Shown: in pieces, positions 17,492-53,118 of the stretch
Position numbering within the stretch: position 1 is the first letter of the stretch
How the letters are laid out: the number at the start of each line of letters is the position of its first letter
Assembly: GCA_949292335.1 (NCBI GenBank)
Contig: CASEYY010000041.1
Location: 29,963 to 93,962, forward strand
DNA: 64,000 nucleotides
DNA from: an uncultured Pseudomonadota bacterium
GTDB lineage: Bacteria > Pseudomonadota > Alphaproteobacteria > RF32 > CAG-239
Direction: 5' to 3'
Program-made: the position numbers and the translations under genes
The notes under the pieces: model-generated
Databases searched by the model: none
Seen by the model: only the letters and a program-made list of their open reading frames with translations
Told to the model about the DNA's origin: nothing

Positions 17492-17752
17492 ATGGCCAAT
17501 CATAAATCTGCTAAAAGCAGAATCGTTAGAAATAATAAAAGAGCCGTTATTAACGGTGCTCGCAGAAGTCGCGTTCGTACCTTTATTAAAAAGGTTGAGG
17601 CTGCGATTGTTGCCGGTGATAAAGAGTTGGCTAACAGCTCTTTCAAAATCGCCGAATCCGAAATGATGAAAGCCGTCAGAAAAGGCGTGTTCAAAATGAA
17701 TACTGCCGCTCGTAAGGTTTCTCGTCTTTCCCAAAAAATTAAAGCCCTTTAG
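17492..17752 (+). CDS. rpsT: 30S ribosomal protein S20
   Basis: MANHKSAKSR...NTAARKVSRL; start re-called to the ATG at 17492. Confidence 0.95.
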   Translation: MANHKSAKSRIVRNNKRAVINGARRSRVRTFIKKVEAAIVAGDKELANSSFKIAESEMMKAVRKGVFKMNTAARKVSRLSQKIKAL

Positions 17753-17775
17753 TTTTTTGTTTTTATTTTATTTTT

Positions 17776-17822
17776 AACGCAAGTCGGACTCTTATTTTAG
17801 AGGTTTTCGGCTTGCGTTTTTT
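17776..17822 (+). terminator. Rho-independent terminator after rpsT
   Basis: AACGCAAGTCGGA...TTCGGCTTGCGTT followed by a T run. Confidence 0.7.
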
Positions 17823-18202
17823 GCTCTAAAAGCCAGAGAATCTGGGCGACTCCTTAAAATATACCTGTCAAGAAATTTAATTGCAATGTTCAATAAAAGT
17901 TCTGTTGTTTTTATTTTTTTTTAACCTAATATCCAAATCACTTTGTTAGAGAATTTTGAAATTTATTTTTGAAATTTTTAGAATCTACTAAGCAGACAGT
18001 ATGGTCTATTTATTAGTTGTCAGCTTATACCTCGTGAATCCACTTGGGGTAAAACTTCTCTCCTAAATTTTATGCGGTCCGGGGAAGACTTCGTAAAAAA
18101 ACTCTGATGGGAGACAGATGGTTGTTTTACCTAAAATGTGCCTTGCGAATTTGTTGTAAACTGGCTAGGTTTTAATTTTTAAGAATGAATTGGGGAGTAA
18201 AA

Positions 18203-20877: not shown

Positions 20878-22107
20878 ATGAATCAACTCGCATATAGTTT
20901 GGCCAGTTTAACTAAGTTAAAGTCAGGTGTAAAACGCCTGACTTTAACTGACTTTAGAAACTACCAATCTTTGCGTATTGAAGCCGAAATCGCTCCCATT
21001 GTTATATATGGCGAAAACGGAAGCGGTAAAACCAATATTTTGGAGGCAATCTCTTTTCTAACTCCGGGAAGAGGTCTCAGAGCTGCCAGACTGGCTGATA
21101 TAAAAAGATTTATTCCCCAAATTGCCGCCTCAAACGAAATATCTTTTATCTCTCCGCTTAATTGGGCGGTGGCCGCCGATATTTATTTGAACGACGAAGT
21201 AGTCAACATTGCTACGGCAGTCGAAAAGTCTAATCGCGAAACATCAGATGACTTTGAGAGTACAACTTCTTTTGAAAGAAGAATTGTTAAAATAAATGAG
21301 CAAAAAGCATCTTCGCAAGCCGAGTTGGGAAAATATTTTGCGGCAAATTGGATAACTCCGCAAATGGACAGGTTATTCAGGGGTGGAAGCCAACCCAGAA
21401 GAGCCTTTCTAGACAGGCTGGTATATGCCTTTGATTTTGAACATGGCAAAAGAACCGCAAATTTTGAACACTTGTATCGTGAGTGGTTTCGCCTGATAAA
21501 GTCAGGAAAATCGGACAATATCTGGCTTGATTCTCTAGAAGAAAAAATGGCCGCGGAAGGAGTTGCCATCGCAGCGGCCAGAAAAGAGCAAATTACCAGA
21601 CTTAACGCCTTTATCGAAAATGAGCCTGATGATGTATTTCCTTCGGTAAAGATGGAGCTTTGCGGTATCATCGAAAACGCTTTGGATAAAAAAGCCGCCG
21701 TGGAAGTTGAATTTGACTATAAAAACCTGATAGCCAAACAACGATATAAAGCAATGGAAAATGAATCTCCGGACGGCGTTAACAAAACCGATTTTAAGGT
21801 CTTCTTTAAAAAGAAAGGTATGCCTGCCGAGTTATGCTCTACCGGCGAACAGAAATCATTGCTTATCAGCATTATTTTAGCCCAAACCAAATGCCAGACC
21901 TTGCACCAAGGATTTGCTCCGGTTATGTTGCTTGATGAAGTTGCGGCTCACCTTGATGATATAAAAAAAGAGGCTTTACTGAAAAAAATTAAAGATTTGG
22001 GTATTCAAGCTTGGATTACCACTACCAATCCGGAAATTTTTGCTTCCATTAAAAATGACGCACAGTTCTTTTGCCTAAAAAATAATAAGCTGCTGCAAAC
22101 AGATTAA
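20878..22107 (+). CDS. recF: DNA replication/repair protein RecF
   Basis: FRNY, GENGSGKTNILEA, STGEQK, LLDEVAAHLD. Confidence 0.95.
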   Translation: MNQLAYSLASLTKLKSGVKRLTLTDFRNYQSLRIEAEIAPIVIYGENGSGKTNILEAISFLTPGRGLRAARLADIKRFIPQIAASNEISFISPLNWAVAADIYLNDEVVNIATAVEKSNRETSDDFESTTSFERRIVKINEQKASSQAELGKYFAANWITPQMDRLFRGGSQPRRAFLDRLVYAFDFEHGKRTANFEHLYREWFRLIKSGKSDNIWLDSLEEKMAAEGVAIAAARKEQITRLNAFIENEPDDVFPSVKMELCGIIENALDKKAAVEVEFDYKNLIAKQRYKAMENESPDGVNKTDFKVFFKKKGMPAELCSTGEQKSLLISIILAQTKCQTLHQGFAPVMLLDEVAAHLDDIKKEALLKKIKDLGIQAWITTTNPEIFASIKNDAQFFCLKNNKLLQTD

Positions 22108-22133
22108 AATAAAAAAATAATCATCATAAAAAC

Positions 22134-22243
22134 GAATCGCTGCAACGATTTGCGGAGAATCGTCGGTTTTGTTTGCGGGAATCGGTAATTTTTTGTTAAG
22201 CATTGTTAAATAGAATCGACCATGTAATACTGATTCGCGATTC
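22134..22243 (+). promoter_or_regulatory. GANTC cluster (6 sites) and CtrA-like promoter upstream of autotransporter 1
   Basis: GANTC at 22134, 22157, 22179, 22213, 22232, 22239; GTAA-N7-TTAA (22185-22199)-N11-TAGAAT. Confidence 0.7.
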
Positions 22244-22286
22244 TGTTTACGGTGTGACTTTTATGTTGGTTGTTGAAAAAAAATAT

Positions 22287-28473: not shown

Positions 28474-29397
28474 GTGGCTAAGCTTAAAGCTCCCAGAAAT
28501 AAAACTCTTTCTTTAAGCCCTGCGGAAACTAATCTTCTGCTTAAAAATGCCGTTAAGCTAAAAAACAAAGCTAATTTTGAAGGGGTAGAAAATCGCATCA
28601 TTTGGCAAGACGCCTTTAAGGCTATAGATTTGTTACCGGACAAATGTGTAGATTTGGTGGTTACCGACCCGCCTTATAATCTGACTAAAAACTTTGGTTC
28701 ATCAACTTTTCGTGAGATGAAAAATGATGAGTATTTGTCTTGGTTGGATAAGTGGCTAAAAAAGTTATCCAGAATCCTAAAAGATGATGCTTCTTTGTAT
28801 ATTTGTGCCGACTGGAAAACTTCGATTGCCGTGCCTTATGTCGCCGGAAAATATTTTGTTTTGCAAAATCGTATTTCTTGGGAACGCGAAAAGGGTCGCG
28901 GGGCAAAAAATAATTGGAAAAACTGCCTTGAAGATATTTGGTTCTTTACCAAGAGCAAAAATTACAAATTTAATCTCGATAAAGTTAAAATCTTAAGAAA
29001 AGTTATTGCTCCGTATCGCAATGAGGAAGGTAGTCCAAAAGATTGGTTCTCCCAAGGAAACGAAAAAATGCGACTTACTCATCCTTCTAACATTTGGACC
29101 GATATATCGGTGCCGTTTTGGTCAATGAGCGAAAATACCCAACACCCAACTCAGAAGCCCGAAAAACTTATTGCGAAACTTATTTTGGCCTCCTCCGATG
29201 AAGGCGATGTCGTCTTTGATCCGTTTGTAGGCTCGGGAACCACCGCCGTGGTGGCAAAAAAATTAAACCGCAAATTTATTGCCATCGAAAAGGAAAAAGA
29301 ATATGTCGCTCTTACTTTGAAAAGACTCGAATTGGCCGAAGAAAACCAGCAAATTCAGGGCTTTGAAAACGGCGTCTTCAGGCCGCGAAACGGTTGA
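28474..29397 (+). CDS. Orphan beta-class N4/N6 DNA methyltransferase
   Basis: DPPY precedes HPTQKP and DPFVGSGTT; no adjacent endonuclease. Confidence 0.9.
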   Translation: MAKLKAPRNKTLSLSPAETNLLLKNAVKLKNKANFEGVENRIIWQDAFKAIDLLPDKCVDLVVTDPPYNLTKNFGSSTFREMKNDEYLSWLDKWLKKLSRILKDDASLYICADWKTSIAVPYVAGKYFVLQNRISWEREKGRGAKNNWKNCLEDIWFFTKSKNYKFNLDKVKILRKVIAPYRNEEGSPKDWFSQGNEKMRLTHPSNIWTDISVPFWSMSENTQHPTQKPEKLIAKLILASSDEGDVVFDPFVGSGTTAVVAKKLNRKFIAIEKEKEYVALTLKRLELAEENQQIQGFENGVFRPRNG

Positions 29398-47805: not shown

Positions 47806-48399
47806 ATGGCAGGAAAAGATATTGAAGTATTGATAAAACAAATTGCAAAACTACCTTCTCTCGGCTCTCGTTCGGCCAGAAGGATTGTTTTGCACCTCTT
47901 GAATAAACGAGAGACCGCTTTTGAACCTTTGATTGCCGCATTAAACAATGTAGCTCAAAATATTAAAACCTGCGAAATCTGCGGAAATTTTGATACCGTA
48001 AGTCCCTGCCCGATTTGTTCGTCATCCAACCGCGATAATTCGATTATTTGTGTGGTACGTGATGTTGCTGATTTGTGGGCAATGGAAAGGGTTTCCCTTT
48101 TTAAGGGAAAATATCATGTCTTGGGCGGCGTTTTATCGGCCATGGAAGGCATTGTTCCGGAAGACTTGAATATCGATAGCTTGGAAAAAAGAGTAGCCTC
48201 CGGAGAGGTGAAAGAGCTGCTCTTGGCATTACCTGCAACCATCGACGGACAAATTACTTCTCATTATCTGTTCTCTAAATTCAAAACTTATGACCTTAAA
48301 ATCACTACCTTGGCACAAGGTATTCCTATGGGAGCTGAGCTTGACTATATGGATGAGGGAACAATTCAGTTGGCTCTCAATTCCAGAAAAGTCTTATAA
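47806..48399 (+). CDS. recR: Recombination protein RecR
   Basis: LPSLGSRSA, CEIC...CPIC, YHVLGG, G.ELDYMDEGT. Confidence 0.95.
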   Translation: MAGKDIEVLIKQIAKLPSLGSRSARRIVLHLLNKRETAFEPLIAALNNVAQNIKTCEICGNFDTVSPCPICSSSNRDNSIICVVRDVADLWAMERVSLFKGKYHVLGGVLSAMEGIVPEDLNIDSLEKRVASGEVKELLLALPATIDGQITSHYLFSKFKTYDLKITTLAQGIPMGAELDYMDEGTIQLALNSRKVL

Positions 48400-48421
48400 A
48401 ATACCTTTTTCAAACTAAAAG

Positions 48422-48521
48422 GAATCGACTTTTTTGGACTCCGCGAATCATAAAGATGAATCATAAATATTTTGTTAATATTTTTTTCCTAGAATCGACT
48501 CATAAGCGATTCGGAGGATTC
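48422..48521 (+). promoter_or_regulatory. GANTC cluster (8 sites) and CtrA-like promoter upstream of autotransporter 2
   Basis: GANTC at 48422, 48437, 48445, 48458, 48492, 48497, 48508, 48517; TAAA-N7-TTAA (48464-48478)-N11-TAGAAT. Confidence 0.75.
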
Positions 48522-48526
48522 TTGTT

Positions 48527-51034
48527 ATGATGTCTAAAAAAAGTTCGTTATTCCTTTTAACCACAACCTTTTTTAGCTTGTGTTCAACAAGTGTTTTGGC
48601 TGACAACTATACTTCGGGAACATATGATGATTATATCGTACATACCGGATATCCTCAACTTGGTATAGCTCAAGATGCAACTGCCGATGGTACTATCGTT
48701 AATTCCGGCGGTAATTTTTCGGTTTTTGATAACGGTCATGTTACCAATACAACTGTCAATCAAGGCGGTAATTTCTATGTGGCTAATAATGGATTTTCTG
48801 ACGGAACAACCGTGAATGGCGGGGGATATGTCGAAGTGCAGGGTTCCGGAAATGCCAGTAATTTGACCGTGAGCGGGTCCGATATTACAAATACCGGACG
48901 AATTACCGTACAAGCCTTCGGAAATGTTGATAATGTAACTGTCAATGATAACGGTAATCTATATGTAAGCGGTGTCGCCACTGATGTAAACCAAAATGCC
49001 GGCTGGATTAATGTCCAGAACGGCGGCACAGTTAATAACCTTACTCTCAACAACGGCGAAACCTATTTGGAAACCGGCGGCATCATTAATAATATGGTGA
49101 TGTTCGACGGACAAGCCAGTGTTGCCAATAATTCTTCATTGTCGGGACTGACTATGACCGGCGGATCTATTACGTTGCATAATGCTTCAAATTTGGAAAA
49201 TGCTTCAATTTCTCAGGACGCCGTCGCGGATGTTTTCGGTAACGCAACTAATGTTACGGTAGATGACGGCGGTACATTAAATGGTAAGTTCGGCGCAACT
49301 ATTGAAAACTTAAATGCCGGAAACGGTGCTCTTATTGATTTGGAAAACGGCGTTGTCTTACAAGGAAATAATGTTTTCTCAAATCAGGCACAGATGGGCG
49401 GGTCTTTTGACTATATTACTTTTGCTCAAAATATTACCGGAAATATCACTTTGGAGGGCGGAATAAATTCTGCTTTGGGTATTAGTTTCGGAACTACTGC
49501 CGATGACACTTCCATTACCTTGAAAAATGGTGATTTTGACATTGGAACCGGAACCGTCGACATTATCGGTTTTGATAATATGTTTTTGTTGTCTGATAAC
49601 CCTGAAACTTATCCGACAACGGTTTTGTTGTCGGGTGATTTGGACTTAAATACCGACAGTAATGTAACTATAGGATCCGGCGTAACCGTTGAAACCGCCA
49701 GTCAGAACCTATCTATGACCGGTAATCTGTTTAATAACGGGGTGCTTGATATTTCTTCCACATCTGCCGATAATGATTTTACTATTGAAGGAAATTATAC
49801 TTCAAATAACGCTTTGTTGAAGCTAAATATTAATCCTGATGCAAGCTCCGCCGATGTCTTGACTATTGAAGGCGATGTACAAGGAACCACTAATGTTCAT
49901 TTGTTTGCAACTTCTAACAATATGAGTAAAGGTGAAATATTATTTGTTGACGCTCAAAATGATGATACTCACACCGCTTCTGATTTTAATATTTGGCGTG
50001 TGGACGGAAGCTCATATGCTTGGGATACCATCAATCGCGGAAATAAATGGTATGCTTATTCGACTAATGTGATGAGCGAAGTTGCCGCTTACGCCGGATT
50101 GTTAGAAAATGCTTTAATGCAAAATCATTCTTTGATTGCTGATTTGAGAAAAAATATTGCTCCAAATCATCTAAATGTCAGAACTTGTTTGCAAGAAACG
50201 CCTTTTTCAAAAGCTTTATATTGTAAGCCGGAAACCGCTCGCCTTTCTGCCTTTGTTTCTCCGGTATATTCAAAAGCAAATGTTGAATTCCCTTTGAGTT
50301 ACGAAGCAGAAATCAGCGGTGTCGATGCCGGCTTAGACCTTGTATCTGACGGAACTCACAAAGTTGGTATTATGGCTTCGGTAAGAGATGGTTCGTACGA
50401 ATTTAGCGGAAATTCCGATAAATATAACTTTAGCGGATCAGCAGAGACTTCTATCGACAGCTATTTGGCTGGAATATTCTACAGAATGGATAAAAATCAT
50501 CTGTCTACAGTGGCTGCTATATACGGAGAAGTGCTTAAAGCCGATTTCTCTTCAAATGATGGTGTAACCGCCGATACCGACGGACACATTGTCGGTGCAT
50601 CTCTTGATGTTTCGTATATTTTTAACGAAATTAAAGATATTTCAATCGAACCATCCTTGAGGATAACATACGAAATGCTTAATCTTGATGGCTTTACCGA
50701 TAATGCCGGAAAATCCGTGGATTATGACAAGCTGCACTATGTGGAAGTTGAGTTCGGTACCAAATTTGCTAAAAACATGATGTTTGATAATGGTGCTTTG
50801 GCTCAAATCTATTTCAAACCTTCTCTTATCCAAACTTTTAACTCGGTCAAAGATATACAACTCAGCGATGGTTTAGTCCTTGACGGAACTCAAAACCGTA
50901 CTTTAGGAAACTTAGAGATTGGTGCAAATTACCAGTTTAACACGGATTGGAGCTTTGGTGCTTTTGCTGATTATACCTTTGGTGACGAGTATAGCGAGTG
51001 GTCTGCATCACTAAACTTATTGTATCATTTCTGA
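48527..51034 (+). CDS. AIDA-I/Ag43-like autotransporter adhesin 2
   Basis: Signal peptide, TTVNxGG repeats, beta-barrel ending LLYHF; GGAGG RBS; paralog of autotransporter 1. Confidence 0.85.
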   Translation: MMSKKSSLFLLTTTFFSLCSTSVLADNYTSGTYDDYIVHTGYPQLGIAQDATADGTIVNSGGNFSVFDNGHVTNTTVNQGGNFYVANNGFSDGTTVNGGGYVEVQGSGNASNLTVSGSDITNTGRITVQAFGNVDNVTVNDNGNLYVSGVATDVNQNAGWINVQNGGTVNNLTLNNGETYLETGGIINNMVMFDGQASVANNSSLSGLTMTGGSITLHNASNLENASISQDAVADVFGNATNVTVDDGGTLNGKFGATIENLNAGNGALIDLENGVVLQGNNVFSNQAQMGGSFDYITFAQNITGNITLEGGINSALGISFGTTADDTSITLKNGDFDIGTGTVDIIGFDNMFLLSDNPETYPTTVLLSGDLDLNTDSNVTIGSGVTVETASQNLSMTGNLFNNGVLDISSTSADNDFTIEGNYTSNNALLKLNINPDASSADVLTIEGDVQGTTNVHLFATSNNMSKGEILFVDAQNDDTHTASDFNIWRVDGSSYAWDTINRGNKWYAYSTNVMSEVAAYAGLLENALMQNHSLIADLRKNIAPNHLNVRTCLQETPFSKALYCKPETARLSAFVSPVYSKANVEFPLSYEAEISGVDAGLDLVSDGTHKVGIMASVRDGSYEFSGNSDKYNFSGSAETSIDSYLAGIFYRMDKNHLSTVAAIYGEVLKADFSSNDGVTADTDGHIVGASLDVSYIFNEIKDISIEPSLRITYEMLNLDGFTDNAGKSVDYDKLHYVEVEFGTKFAKNMMFDNGALAQIYFKPSLIQTFNSVKDIQLSDGLVLDGTQNRTLGNLEIGANYQFNTDWSFGAFADYTFGDEYSEWSASLNLLYHF

Positions 51035-51036
51035 GT

Positions 51037-51735
51037 TTAGTCAACACTGTCAATCAACCGCTCTAAGTCTTCGCGTTCGGACTGGTGGTAGCCTACCTCT
51101 TCGCTGATTTTTGATACTTGTTTCTTTACGCTCTTTTTGATTTGCGGGCGGGCTAGTTTTTCAAAGAGTTCTGACGAGCTGTCTTTTTCTTCATCTTCTT
51201 TAGACGGCTCTTCGGCACTCAAAGCTTGAGTCTTCTCTTTTATCAAATCAAGAGTTTCTTGCGGTATCATCTCTTCTAATGGTTTGGCAAATGAACCGGC
51301 CAACTGATAGTATTTTGACTCGGTTAAAACCTCGGATTGCTTGTCTTCGGGAATAATCCAACTTACCATTATATTAAATAATATAACCAGCAAAAAAGCT
51401 CGCATAATGCCGAAAAATAAACCCAAGAATCTATCTAGTCCATTGAGCTTGCTGGTGCGAATTTTACCAACAATACTACTGGTCGAATAAATCCAAATGA
51501 TGAAAAATACTATAAAGATGATTAATGTGGTCAGAATACCAGCTAAAAGCCCACTGGATACAAATTTTTGAGTTAGCGGCAGAAATACCGGCAACAGGTA
51601 AATTATTGATGCGGTGGCTAAAACCCAGCCTACTATCGATAAAACTTCTTTTATTAATCCCCTGTTTAATGCTATCAATGCGGATATAGCAACAATTATC
51701 AGTATGATCACATCTAAATTATTCAGTTGGTACAT
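51037..51735 (-). CDS. cvpA: CvpA family membrane protein
   Basis: RGLIKEVLS, LDRFLGLFFGIMRA; downstream of radA. Confidence 0.85.
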   Translation of the reverse strand: MYQLNNLDVIILIIVAISALIALNRGLIKEVLSIVGWVLATASIIYLLPVFLPLTQKFVSSGLLAGILTTLIIFIVFFIIWIYSTSSIVGKIRTSKLNGLDRFLGLFFGIMRAFLLVILFNIMVSWIIPEDKQSEVLTESKYYQLAGSFAKPLEEMIPQETLDLIKEKTQALSAEEPSKEDEEKDSSSELFEKLARPQIKKSVKKQVSKISEEVGYHQSEREDLERLIDSVD

Positions 51736-51744
51736 CTCTAAGCC

Positions 51745-53118
51745 CTAATTAAGTAAATTTATTAATCTTTGAACATTTCCCATTTCGTGCAAATCCATTT
51801 CAACCGAGTATTTTTTATCGGTTGAGCGGCCTTGCGGAATTATGGCACTGTGAAAACCGAGTTTTTTGGCCTCTTTTAGCCTTAGTGATGGTTGTGAGAC
51901 CGCCCTAATCTCCCCTGACAAACCAATCTCGCCAAAAACAACCATATCGGCAGGTAAGGTCTTTTTGTTTAGTGATGATATTACAGCCAAAGCAACCGCC
52001 AAATCAGCTGCCGGTTCCGATATTCTTAAACCACCGGCAATATTTAGGTAAACATCTTGAGAGCTTAAATTCATTCCGCAACGAGCATCCAGAACAGCTA
52101 AAACCATGGCCAAGCGGTTGGAATCCCAGCCTACGACTGCTCTTTTGGGACTGGCATAACTGGTAGGGCTGACAAGTGCTTGTATTTCTACTAAAACCGG
52201 CCTTGACCCCTCTATACCGGCAAAAACGCAAGAACCATAAACATTGCCTTGCCTTTCGGCCAAAAACAATGCCGAAGGATTGGCAACCTCGACCAAACCC
52301 TTATCTTGCATTTCGAAAACACCTATTTCATCGGTAGCACCATAACGATTTTTAACGGCACGCAAAATGCGGAAATGATGTCCCCTCTCGCCTTCAAAAT
52401 ATAATACCGTATCAACCATGTGTTCCAAAACTCTGGGACCGGCAATCTCCCCTTGTTTGGTTACATGGCCTACCAAGAACAGTGTAAACCCCTTGCGTTT
52501 GGCCAGTTTTATCAATTCGTAACTACAGGCTCTGACTTGAGTTACGCTGCCGGGGGTTGATTCAACTTCATCTAAGAACATGGTTTGGATGGAATCGATT
52601 ATTACCACAGCAGCATTTGATTTTTCAAGCGTAGTTATAATATCCTTTATCTCAGTACTGGAAGCTAAATTTACCGGGGACTTTTCCAATCCCAGTCTTT
52701 TGGCTCTTAATCTGACCTGATCAACCGCCTCCTCTCCGGAGATATAATAAACTTCTGGCTGAGATGGTAAATCGGCAACTTTGGCACATACTTGCAAAAG
52801 CAGGGTGGACTTACCTATTCCGGGGTCGCCGCCGACTAGTATTACCGAGCCTGCTACCAAGCCGCCGCCGCAAACTCTGTCAAGCTCTTTAATGCCGGTA
52901 GAAAGCCTGTCAAGCTGTTCTTGAGCCCCGCTTAAAGCAAAAAATTCTATCTCCCTGCCCTTGCTTTTGCGAGGGTTAAAATTGGAAAAACCGCCGCCGC
53001 CGATTATTTCTTCAACAATGGTATTCCATTCACCGCAAGTGTCACACTTTCCTTGCCATTTGGGATAAACGGCTCCGCAATTTTGACAAACATATTGCCT
53101 AAGTTCTTTTTTTACCAA
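51745..53118 (-). CDS. radA: DNA repair protein RadA/Sms
   Basis: CQNCG...CDTC, GGDPGIGKST, KNRYG, EPAADL. Confidence 0.97.
   Translation of the reverse strand: MVKKELRQYVCQNCGAVYPKWQGKCDTCGEWNTIVEEIIGGGGFSNFNPRKSKGREIEFFALSGAQEQLDRLSTGIKELDRVCGGGLVAGSVILVGGDPGIGKSTLLLQVCAKVADLPSQPEVYYISGEEAVDQVRLRAKRLGLEKSPVNLASSTEIKDIITTLEKSNAAVVIIDSIQTMFLDEVESTPGSVTQVRACSYELIKLAKRKGFTLFLVGHVTKQGEIAGPRVLEHMVDTVLYFEGERGHHFRILRAVKNRYGATDEIGVFEMQDKGLVEVANPSALFLAERQGNVYGSCVFAGIEGSRPVLVEIQALVSPTSYASPKRAVVGWDSNRLAMVLAVLDARCGMNLSSQDVYLNIAGGLRISEPAADLAVALAVISSLNKKTLPADMVVFGEIGLSGEIRAVSQPSLRLKEAKKLGFHSAIIPQGRSTDKKYSVEMDLHEMGNVQRLINLLN

Follow-up and report, generated by a model that had tools for sequence, protein, structure and literature searches.

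The 64,000-nucleotide stretch analysed here (the window, G000:C41:29963-93962) comes from an uncultured alphaproteobacterium, and the element under study is the GANTC-rich spacer between recR and the gene for autotransporter 2 (AT2), together with a related spacer between recF and the gene for autotransporter 1 (AT1). The genome, G000, consists of 1,475,206 bases in 49 contigs (40.5% G+C) and was rated 100% complete; genes were called by a longest-open reading frame (ORF) approximation. The recR-AT2 spacer is 127 bp long and contains all eight GANTC sites of a 100-bp cluster, along with a CtrA-like box, a putative -10 hexamer and a ribosome-binding site (Table 1). Both autotransporters matched PF03797 (78 bits for AT1, 84 bits for AT2), PF16168 (62 and 32 bits) and TIGR01414, and both scored far under the Ag43 equivalog cut-off. 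By domain content they are members of the AIDA/Ag43-type autotransporter family and not Ag43 orthologs. They are distant paralogs of one another, with ~28% identity over ~500 residues.

Table 1. Features of the AT2 and AT1 loci, numbered from the first base of the window. R1 is the search model described in the text.
Feature	Position	Strand	Remarks
recR, upstream neighbour of AT2	47806-48399	+	
AT2 copy of the conserved module	48395-48546	+	R1 match G000:C41:78357-78508, 79.8 bits, E 1.7e-22; nhmmer E 4.5e-16
S1, GAATC, distal array site	48422-48426		GAATC in 55/55 best module copies
Extra GACTC between S1 and S2	48437-48441		AT2 copies only; also in G066 (L060)
S2, GAATC	48445-48449		23 bp past S1, as in the family pattern
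S3, GAATC	48458-48462		13 bp past S2; 34 bp ahead of the -10 site
CtrA-like box TAAA-N7-TTAA (7/8)	48464-48478	+	ends 11 bp ahead of the -10 hexamer, at the expected -35 position
Putative -10 hexamer TAGAAT, then C	48490-48496	+	hexamer 48490-48495; creates GANTC 48492-48496
GACTC adjoining the -10	48497-48501		absent from G066
GATTC in CGATTCG context	48508-48512	+	context 48507-48513, fits YGAKTCK; putative position ~+6 to +12
Ribosome-binding site GGAGG	48513-48517	+	9 nt ahead of ATG (48527)
GATTC sharing the final G of the ribosome-binding site	48517-48521	+	
AT2, 835 aa	48527-51034	+	AIDA repeat and autotransporter beta-domain
recF, upstream neighbour of AT1	20878-22107		
AT1 copy of the module	22107-22265	+	R1 98.9 bits
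AT1 GANTC sites	22134, 22157, 22179, 22213, 22232, 22239		
AT1 CtrA-like box GTAA-N7-TTAA (7/8)	22185-22199		
AT1 TAGAAT	22211-22216		
AT1, 1220 aa	22263-25925	+	downstream of dnaA-dnaN-recF

The GANTC cluster at AT2 is beyond chance. The genome contains 2684 GANTC sites (1.82 per kb), and the motif is depleted in the window (164 observed versus 207 ± 13 in shuffles). Nowhere in the genome except at AT2 do eight sites fall within 100 bp, and the second densest cluster is the AT1 locus (5 per 100 bp, 6 per 110 bp). By a Poisson estimate made by hand, 0.18 sites were expected per 100 bp, and the probability of at least eight was ~2e-11 for each 100-bp stretch. When spacers were ranked on rough ORF calls, the recR-AT2 spacer had 6.3 sites per 100 bp versus 1.3 for the next among the spacers listed; the AT1 spacer ranked lower by density because an ORF call starting at TTG 22203 shortens it. 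Exact GANTC sites in the AT2 spacer numbered eight and one-mismatch sites one, compared with a genome-wide exact to one-mismatch ratio of 0.044.

The two loci share a core in which TTTTGTTAA, 11 bases and TAGAATCGAC are followed by two GATTC sites (48470-48499 at AT2 and 22191-22220 at AT1, with GATTC at 22232 and 22239 in the latter). A pattern search of the whole genome found GTTAA-N11-TAGAATC only at the AT1 and AT2 loci, and the array was not found at the other autotransporter genes of G000 (contigs C4 and C31). An earlier note on this DNA had reported the eight sites in 48422-48521, a GANTC on the -10 with others flanking the GGAGG, the string common to both loci and a 7/8 CtrA-like box at each, and had proposed the pattern search. 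These observations were all reproduced: the sites could be listed individually and form the unique density maximum of the genome, the site at 48492 overlaps TAGAAT, and the GATTC sites at 48508 and 48517 stand on either side of the ribosome-binding site.

An alignment of 11 module copies (A1) was converted to a sequence-only model (R1), which was used as the search query against 56 genomes from the genus and against 141 genomes, spanning 20 genera, sampled at the level of the order; the relatives compared were mostly draft genomes. Of the 56 genus genomes, 43 were matched by R1, each carrying between 1 and 5 copies. Within the order-level sample, matches were obtained in 22 of the 29 genomes of the genus and in 7/7, 2/2 and 1/1 genomes of three other genera, while three further genera gave one weak hit each and 13 of the 20 gave zero. 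A pattern scan of the 56 genus genomes also found the GTTAA-N11-TAGAATC core with its upstream GAATC array at places other than the two loci. A realignment of 69 R1 matches (A2) was made, and the per-site counts below are taken from its 55 best rows; these represent related genomes and so are non-independent.

From its distal end, the A2 consensus consists of an A/T tract, an optional GACTC (S0), GAATC (S1), an optional GAGTC (S1b), GAATC (S2), an optional GAATC (S2b) and GAATC (S3), followed by GTAA-N7-TTAA; 11 bases past this box comes TAGAAT-C or TAGCCT, frequently followed by GCGATTC. S1 was present in every copy, S2 in 51/55 and S3 in 39/55, with a central A each time. The remaining sites were S0 (26/55; central base C in 24 and T in 2), S1b (25/55; G in 23 and A in 2), the -10 site (25/55; A) and the first downstream site (15-18/55; T). 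The step from S1 to S2 was 23 bp in 47 of 51 copies, and S3 preceded the -10 site by 34 or 35 bp. The step from S2 to S3 was 22 bp in 36/36 other copies having both sites versus 13 bp in the AT2 copy, which keeps the 23- and 34-bp steps and gains two GACTC sites (48437 and 48497). Eight sites per 100 bp were reached by the AT2 copy and one other, the median of the copies being 5. Sequence between the sites varied between copies in both alignments; GTTAA was invariant in A1, and TAG..T was conserved 11 bp past it. Copies in other genera had 4 to 7 sites per 100 bp, some of them at shifted positions yet still GANTC. We read the module as a cis-regulatory cassette conserved across a family of small-genome alphaproteobacteria, and the 100-bp cluster as the putative regulatory region of AT2. 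Because S0, S1b and the extra AT2 sites vary at the central base yet keep the motif, selection appears to act on GANTC itself.

Conservation was judged mainly on copies elsewhere in the genomes, because most relatives are without AT2 downstream of recR. Of 24 relatives examined at that position, 22 had at most three GANTC and no ORF longer than 360 amino acids, and hence none of autotransporter length; a further one, L017, was left unjudged since its sequence stops 191 bases past recR. The AT2 locus was common to G066 only, where 7/8 sites were retained. Nucleotide identity between G000 and G066 at this locus was 88.9% for the spacer, 89.4% for recR and 71.8% for the first 1470 nt of AT2. At the AT1 locus, identity was 86.5% for the spacer, 84% for the neighbouring housekeeping gene and 72.5% for the AT1 gene. 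The spacers are about as well conserved as the adjoining housekeeping genes, and the promoters have been kept far better than the autotransporter genes they drive. The earlier note had argued for selection on the sites, and the spread of the module through the genus and into other genera, together with these identities, agrees with that view. The check on orthologous promoters that it had suggested gave a mixed outcome, as the locus itself could be compared in G066 alone, and the copies elsewhere were conserved.

In G019, the closest relative, the spacer and AT2 are absent and the end of cvpA lies 3 bases past recR. The spacer plus AT2 (48400-51036) thus make a clean 2.6-kb presence/absence difference, with no flanking repeats evident. 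Gene orientation and GC skew both switch at the AT2/cvpA junction (~48000-52000), and the cumulative skew of the window has its maximum at ~50 kb and its minimum at ~4 kb. Part of the stretch was also present in sequencing runs labelled as bird and chicken-gut metagenomes, and the runs listed included none of RNA. Among contigs of four public runs compared, only those of X1, which may be the source, covered the entire stretch; one X4 contig has C for T at 48519, by which the GANTC would be retained, but with a depth of 2 it is too thin for counting.

The 55 best copies were sorted by context using our own groupings. Fifteen lie past recF and ahead of an autotransporter gene (Pfam AIDA repeat in 8/10 ORFs tested in the recF group), and four lie past recF at loci that lack the autotransporter, where the next gene is a convergent one for an ABC transporter (L075, L081, L093 and L101; four species). 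The two past recR and ahead of AT2 are those of G000 and G066. Seventeen are found between gyrB and polA, directed away from gyrB into ~230 nt of conserved non-coding DNA. Seven copies elsewhere stand ahead of AIDA, autotransporter or Pmp-repeat ORFs and two similar ones may do so, one is ahead of dnaN, one is ~200 nt ahead of rpsA, and six were not assigned. About half of the copies are ahead of autotransporter or Pmp-like surface proteins. Given the gyrB-polA, dnaN and rpsA copies, service as an adhesin promoter is the main use of the cassette but not its sole one. G000 has two full copies only, and its polA-gyrB spacer (~125 nt) is without the module. In this genome recF, recR, gyrB and polA all lie within ~35 kb of dnaA.

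Several further observations concern these contexts. The four copies past recF without an autotransporter may reflect recent loss of the adhesin gene or a use of the module in its own right. A partial S0-S1-S1b-like block with 3-4 GANTC is present in G000 outside the window, at C9:10358-10402; it precedes rpsJ, with which the S10 ribosomal protein operon starts, by ~300 nt. At the gyrB-polA loci of other species (L066-L070 and L074; e.g. L066:1617-1850), the strongly conserved stretch opens with a short hairpin-forming repeat containing the GATTC site. An Rfam search of six gyrB-polA loci gave zero matches at E up to 0.1, and RNAalifold predicted 48 pairs in the stretch beside gyrB with a compensatory change in 1, which leaves a structure unsupported; the stretch might encode a small RNA or act as a leader. 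The spacer upstream of dnaA (window 17735-18184, 450 bp) has 5 GANTC and TTGAAA-N17-TAGAAT followed by C, so that the likely dnaA promoter also carries a GANTC on its -10. Two near-identical promoters of G000 at C48:13327 and C41:104677, both outside the window, have a perfect TTAA-N7-TTAA one base ahead of TAGAATCGAG. The C48 copy precedes a Pmp-like surface-protein ORF (567 aa, reaching the contig end), and the C41 copy is at a contig end without a following ORF in the assembly.

The genome was also searched for proteins that could methylate or read the sites. A 364-aa CcrM homolog (L001:1162-2256(-)) matched structure 6pbd over residues 11-361 (E 1.2e-154) and is predicted to be specific for GANTC. 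A full-length CcrM match was found in 140 of the 141 order-sample genomes, which is uninformative on co-occurrence with the module. GcrA scored 121.7 bits in Pfam versus a cut-off of 26.9, and CtrA (L033:1069-1758) scored 402.8 bits versus a cut-off of 350 (NF045991). Four N6/N4 methyltransferase genes were found in G000 including that of CcrM, one of them encoding a 260-aa CcrM-like protein without the C-terminal domain. One of the others lies in the window, at 28474-29397, and encodes an N6/N4-type enzyme of 307 aa, for which PRK11524 was the best model. In this 100%-complete genome no MucR and no Lrp/AsnC protein was found, and the LysR-type helix-turn-helix domain (HTH_1) was found in one atypical protein only. 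Several winged-helix regulators are encoded, including an orphan 203-aa protein. Co-occurrence was uninformative on the latter as a module-linked factor, since it is present in 56/56 genus genomes.

The interpretation that we prefer, at about even confidence, is that of a methylation-read promoter cassette near dnaA giving cell-cycle-coupled expression. We infer the transcription start, the methylation, the binding proteins and the direction of the effect from sequence features. CcrM would methylate the GANTC sites of the cassette, and CtrA or a similar factor would act at the box. GcrA would read the methylated sites adjoining and downstream of the -10, and either GcrA or a different protein sensitive to methylation would read the rigid upstream array. 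The timing would be set by hemimethylation arising from replication close to the origin: as the main cassette positions are within ~35 kb of dnaA, they would become hemimethylated early in each replication round, which would couple expression to replication and the cell cycle. The downstream genes (adhesins, dnaN, rpsA and the gyrB neighbourhood) fit such control. The cassette probably makes surface adhesins, along with a small number of housekeeping genes, dependent for their expression on DNA methylation and the cell cycle; heritable ON/OFF switching is possible but less likely.

Promoter anatomy is in part consistent with this interpretation. CtrA-activated promoters normally have the box at -35 (PMC11264516). 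No canonical sigma-70 -35/-10 pair was found in scans of both spacers, so the promoter is probably activator-dependent. GcrA prefers TGATTCG, or more broadly YGAKTCK, and the sites of its regulon cluster near -20 and at +2 to +30 (PMC4647560). YGAKTCK was fitted on one strand by 9 of the 14 sites of both loci versus 27% of genomic GANTC. The sites past the -10 are TGATTCG and CGATTCT at AT1 (22231-22244) and CGATTCG at AT2, 6-25 bp past the putative start, and counted from it they would fall in the +2 to +30 zone of GcrA targets.

Other results weigh against a methylation-read, cell-cycle-coupled cassette. The CtrA-like box is only 7/8 at both loci, and the window has 2 perfect CtrA boxes versus 6.6 expected, neither of them at AT1 or AT2. 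TAGAAT followed by C was not enriched (17 of 86 intergenic TAGAATN strings). A GANTC on the -10, present in 25/55 copies, is unlike the GcrA-regulated promoters of Caulobacter, which have almost no GANTC at that position, and the upstream array, at a putative -45 to -100, falls outside the reported GcrA zones (PMC4647560). The constant central A and conserved flanks of S1-S3 would also suit a methylation-independent, sequence-specific protein. No intrinsic terminator was found after recR or recF in the spacer scans, so read-through transcription may contribute. The best NCBIfam model for the 364-aa protein was CcrM, at 597 bits versus a cut-off of 830 (a Caulobacter CcrM control was likewise under the cut-off), and the NCBIfam equivalog for GcrA gave 115 versus a cut-off of 280.

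These results also qualify what the earlier note had proposed, namely a shared adhesin module made up of a CtrA-like box, a methylatable -10 and a GANTC array. The module is real and CcrM, GcrA and CtrA are encoded, but it is not adhesin-specific, given the 17/55 gyrB-polA copies, those at dnaN and rpsA and the partial block at rpsJ. The methylatable -10 occurs at both loci and in less than half of the copies, the upstream array being the invariant part. The CtrA-like box is imperfect; its position is as expected and its GTTAA is invariant in A1. The term "undescribed system" overstates what can be read from sequence alone.

The likeliest of the alternatives, which we nevertheless consider unlikely, is a plain array for a sequence-specific regulator that recognises GAATC, for example as ~22-bp direct repeats, with methylation irrelevant. 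Such a protein would explain the central A of the core sites (S1 55/55, S2 51/51, S3 39/39) with their conserved flanks, and the three core sites do form a rigidly spaced ~22-bp direct-repeat unit; the winged-helix regulators, including the orphan one found throughout the genus, are candidates. It is less easily reconciled with additional sites that have a central C, G or T and remain exact GANTC, with the 8 to 1 excess of exact over near-sites, or with the match of the sites downstream of the -10 to the GcrA motif (PMC4647560). Moreover, with CcrM in the cell, any binder would meet methylated or hemimethylated DNA anyway.

Heritable epigenetic phase variation was judged about as unlikely. Here a DNA-binding protein would compete with CcrM at the array, so that in some lineages the sites stay free of methylation and the adhesin is held OFF (or ON), much as Dam acts with OxyR at agn43, gtr and opvAB or with Lrp at pap. 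Blockers of the known kinds were not found (no MucR, no Lrp/AsnC, and one atypical protein only with the LysR-type domain), and the gyrB, dnaN and rpsA copies would be odd ON/OFF targets. The idea draws its appeal from the driven genes, which mostly encode Ag43/AIDA-type and Pmp-like surface proteins, a class phase-varied elsewhere, and which diverge fast while their promoters stay fixed. At least four motifs at fixed spacing upstream of a promoter also recall opvAB, which has four each of GATC motifs and OxyR sites (PMC4856963), and in Brucella a hypomethylated GANTC shielded from CcrM by MucR adjoins an autotransporter adhesin gene (bioRxiv 10.1101/2024.03.01.583015).

It is very improbable that the module is a chromosome-level element near the origin, serving sequestration or organisation by a SeqA-like logic, to which promoters are merely adjacent. 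The main contexts (past recF or recR, in the gyrB-polA interval and ahead of dnaN) involve genes within ~35 kb of dnaA in G000, and the module was kept after recF at the 4 loci without an autotransporter gene. The array, however, is always in one orientation and at a fixed distance to the box and -10, like a promoter, and several copies are elsewhere, ahead of surface-protein genes. To our knowledge, alphaproteobacteria are not known to have a SeqA-like protein that recognises GANTC, although no search aimed at one was made. The chance that the cluster is a functionless leftover of duplication or an accident is close to negligible, for although AT1 and AT2 as distant paralogs could share an ancestral promoter, the cluster is a genome-wide density outlier and its spacing is fixed across 43/56 genus genomes and other genera while surrounding and intervening sequence diverges, a conservation that already contradicts this explanation.

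Nearly all that is understood of CcrM- and GcrA-dependent regulation comes from Caulobacter and a small number of Rhizobiales, at promoters with one or two GANTC. The cassette described here is a 150-bp element with up to 8 sites that is found in dozens of uncultured small-genome alphaproteobacteria, mainly on rapidly diverging adhesin genes. If its sites are read as methylation marks, as in the interpretation we prefer, it would provide a compact natural test bed for multi-site integration at one promoter, and for whether the cell-cycle enzyme CcrM can also make a gut commensal heterogeneous in its adhesins. Should the sites have no such role, the cassette is still a strong regulatory motif that can be reused when these genomes are annotated.

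Of the known systems, the GcrA/CcrM sigma-70 promoters of Caulobacter (Haakonsen et al. 2015, PMC4647560) share with the cassette the GANTC motif, homologs of CcrM and GcrA, YGAKTCK sites just past the putative start and targets in DNA replication. They differ in having one or two sites, as compared with 5-8 per promoter here, and the cassette has a rigid array well upstream of both the -20 and the +2 to +30 zones, often a site on the -10, and mostly adhesins as targets. CtrA-activated TTAA-N7-TTAA promoters, including pilA (PMC11264516), resemble the cassette in the CtrA homolog, the box-like element at -35 and, for pilA, a surface adhesion target with extra upstream sites that could tune timing. 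The box of the cassette is at best 7/8, and the upstream sites of pilA are irregularly spaced CtrA half-sites, unlike the rigid GANTC array. Hypomethylated GANTC clusters shielded by MucR reportedly occur in Caulobacter as well. Those described from Brucella (bioRxiv 10.1101/2024.03.01.583015) are likewise intergenic and near surface or virulence genes; they depend on MucR, not found in G000, and are not described there as a rigidly spaced conserved cassette. A limited literature search did not find a rigidly spaced, family-wide array of 5-8 GANTC sites linked mainly to adhesins. The parts (CcrM, GcrA, CtrA and promoter GANTC) are known; it is their rigid, conserved multi-site arrangement that was not found described in that search.

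The Dam-dependent switches offer another comparison. Agn43/OxyR and pap/Lrp are phase-variation switches of this kind, and Ag43 is itself an AIDA-type autotransporter. Like agn43, opvAB and pap, the cassette has clustered motifs of an orphan methyltransferase where a gene for a surface structure is regulated, several motifs at fixed spacing, and a regulatory region conserved across a gene family. It differs in the enzyme and motif (CcrM and GANTC rather than Dam and GATC), in the regulators, since Lrp and MucR were not found in G000 and the LysR-type domain occurs in one atypical protein, and in adjoining housekeeping genes as well. Unlike in the Dam switches, the activity of CcrM is restricted in the cell cycle in model alphaproteobacteria. 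We suggest, tentatively and with low confidence, that across the family the near-dnaA GANTC array might serve a novel factor that converts the CcrM methylation cycle into timed or bistable expression, its targets being adhesins that evolve fast, some genes of replication and the ribosome, and a conserved non-coding transcript beside gyrB. If so, CcrM would play the part here that Dam plays in the OxyR and Lrp switches.

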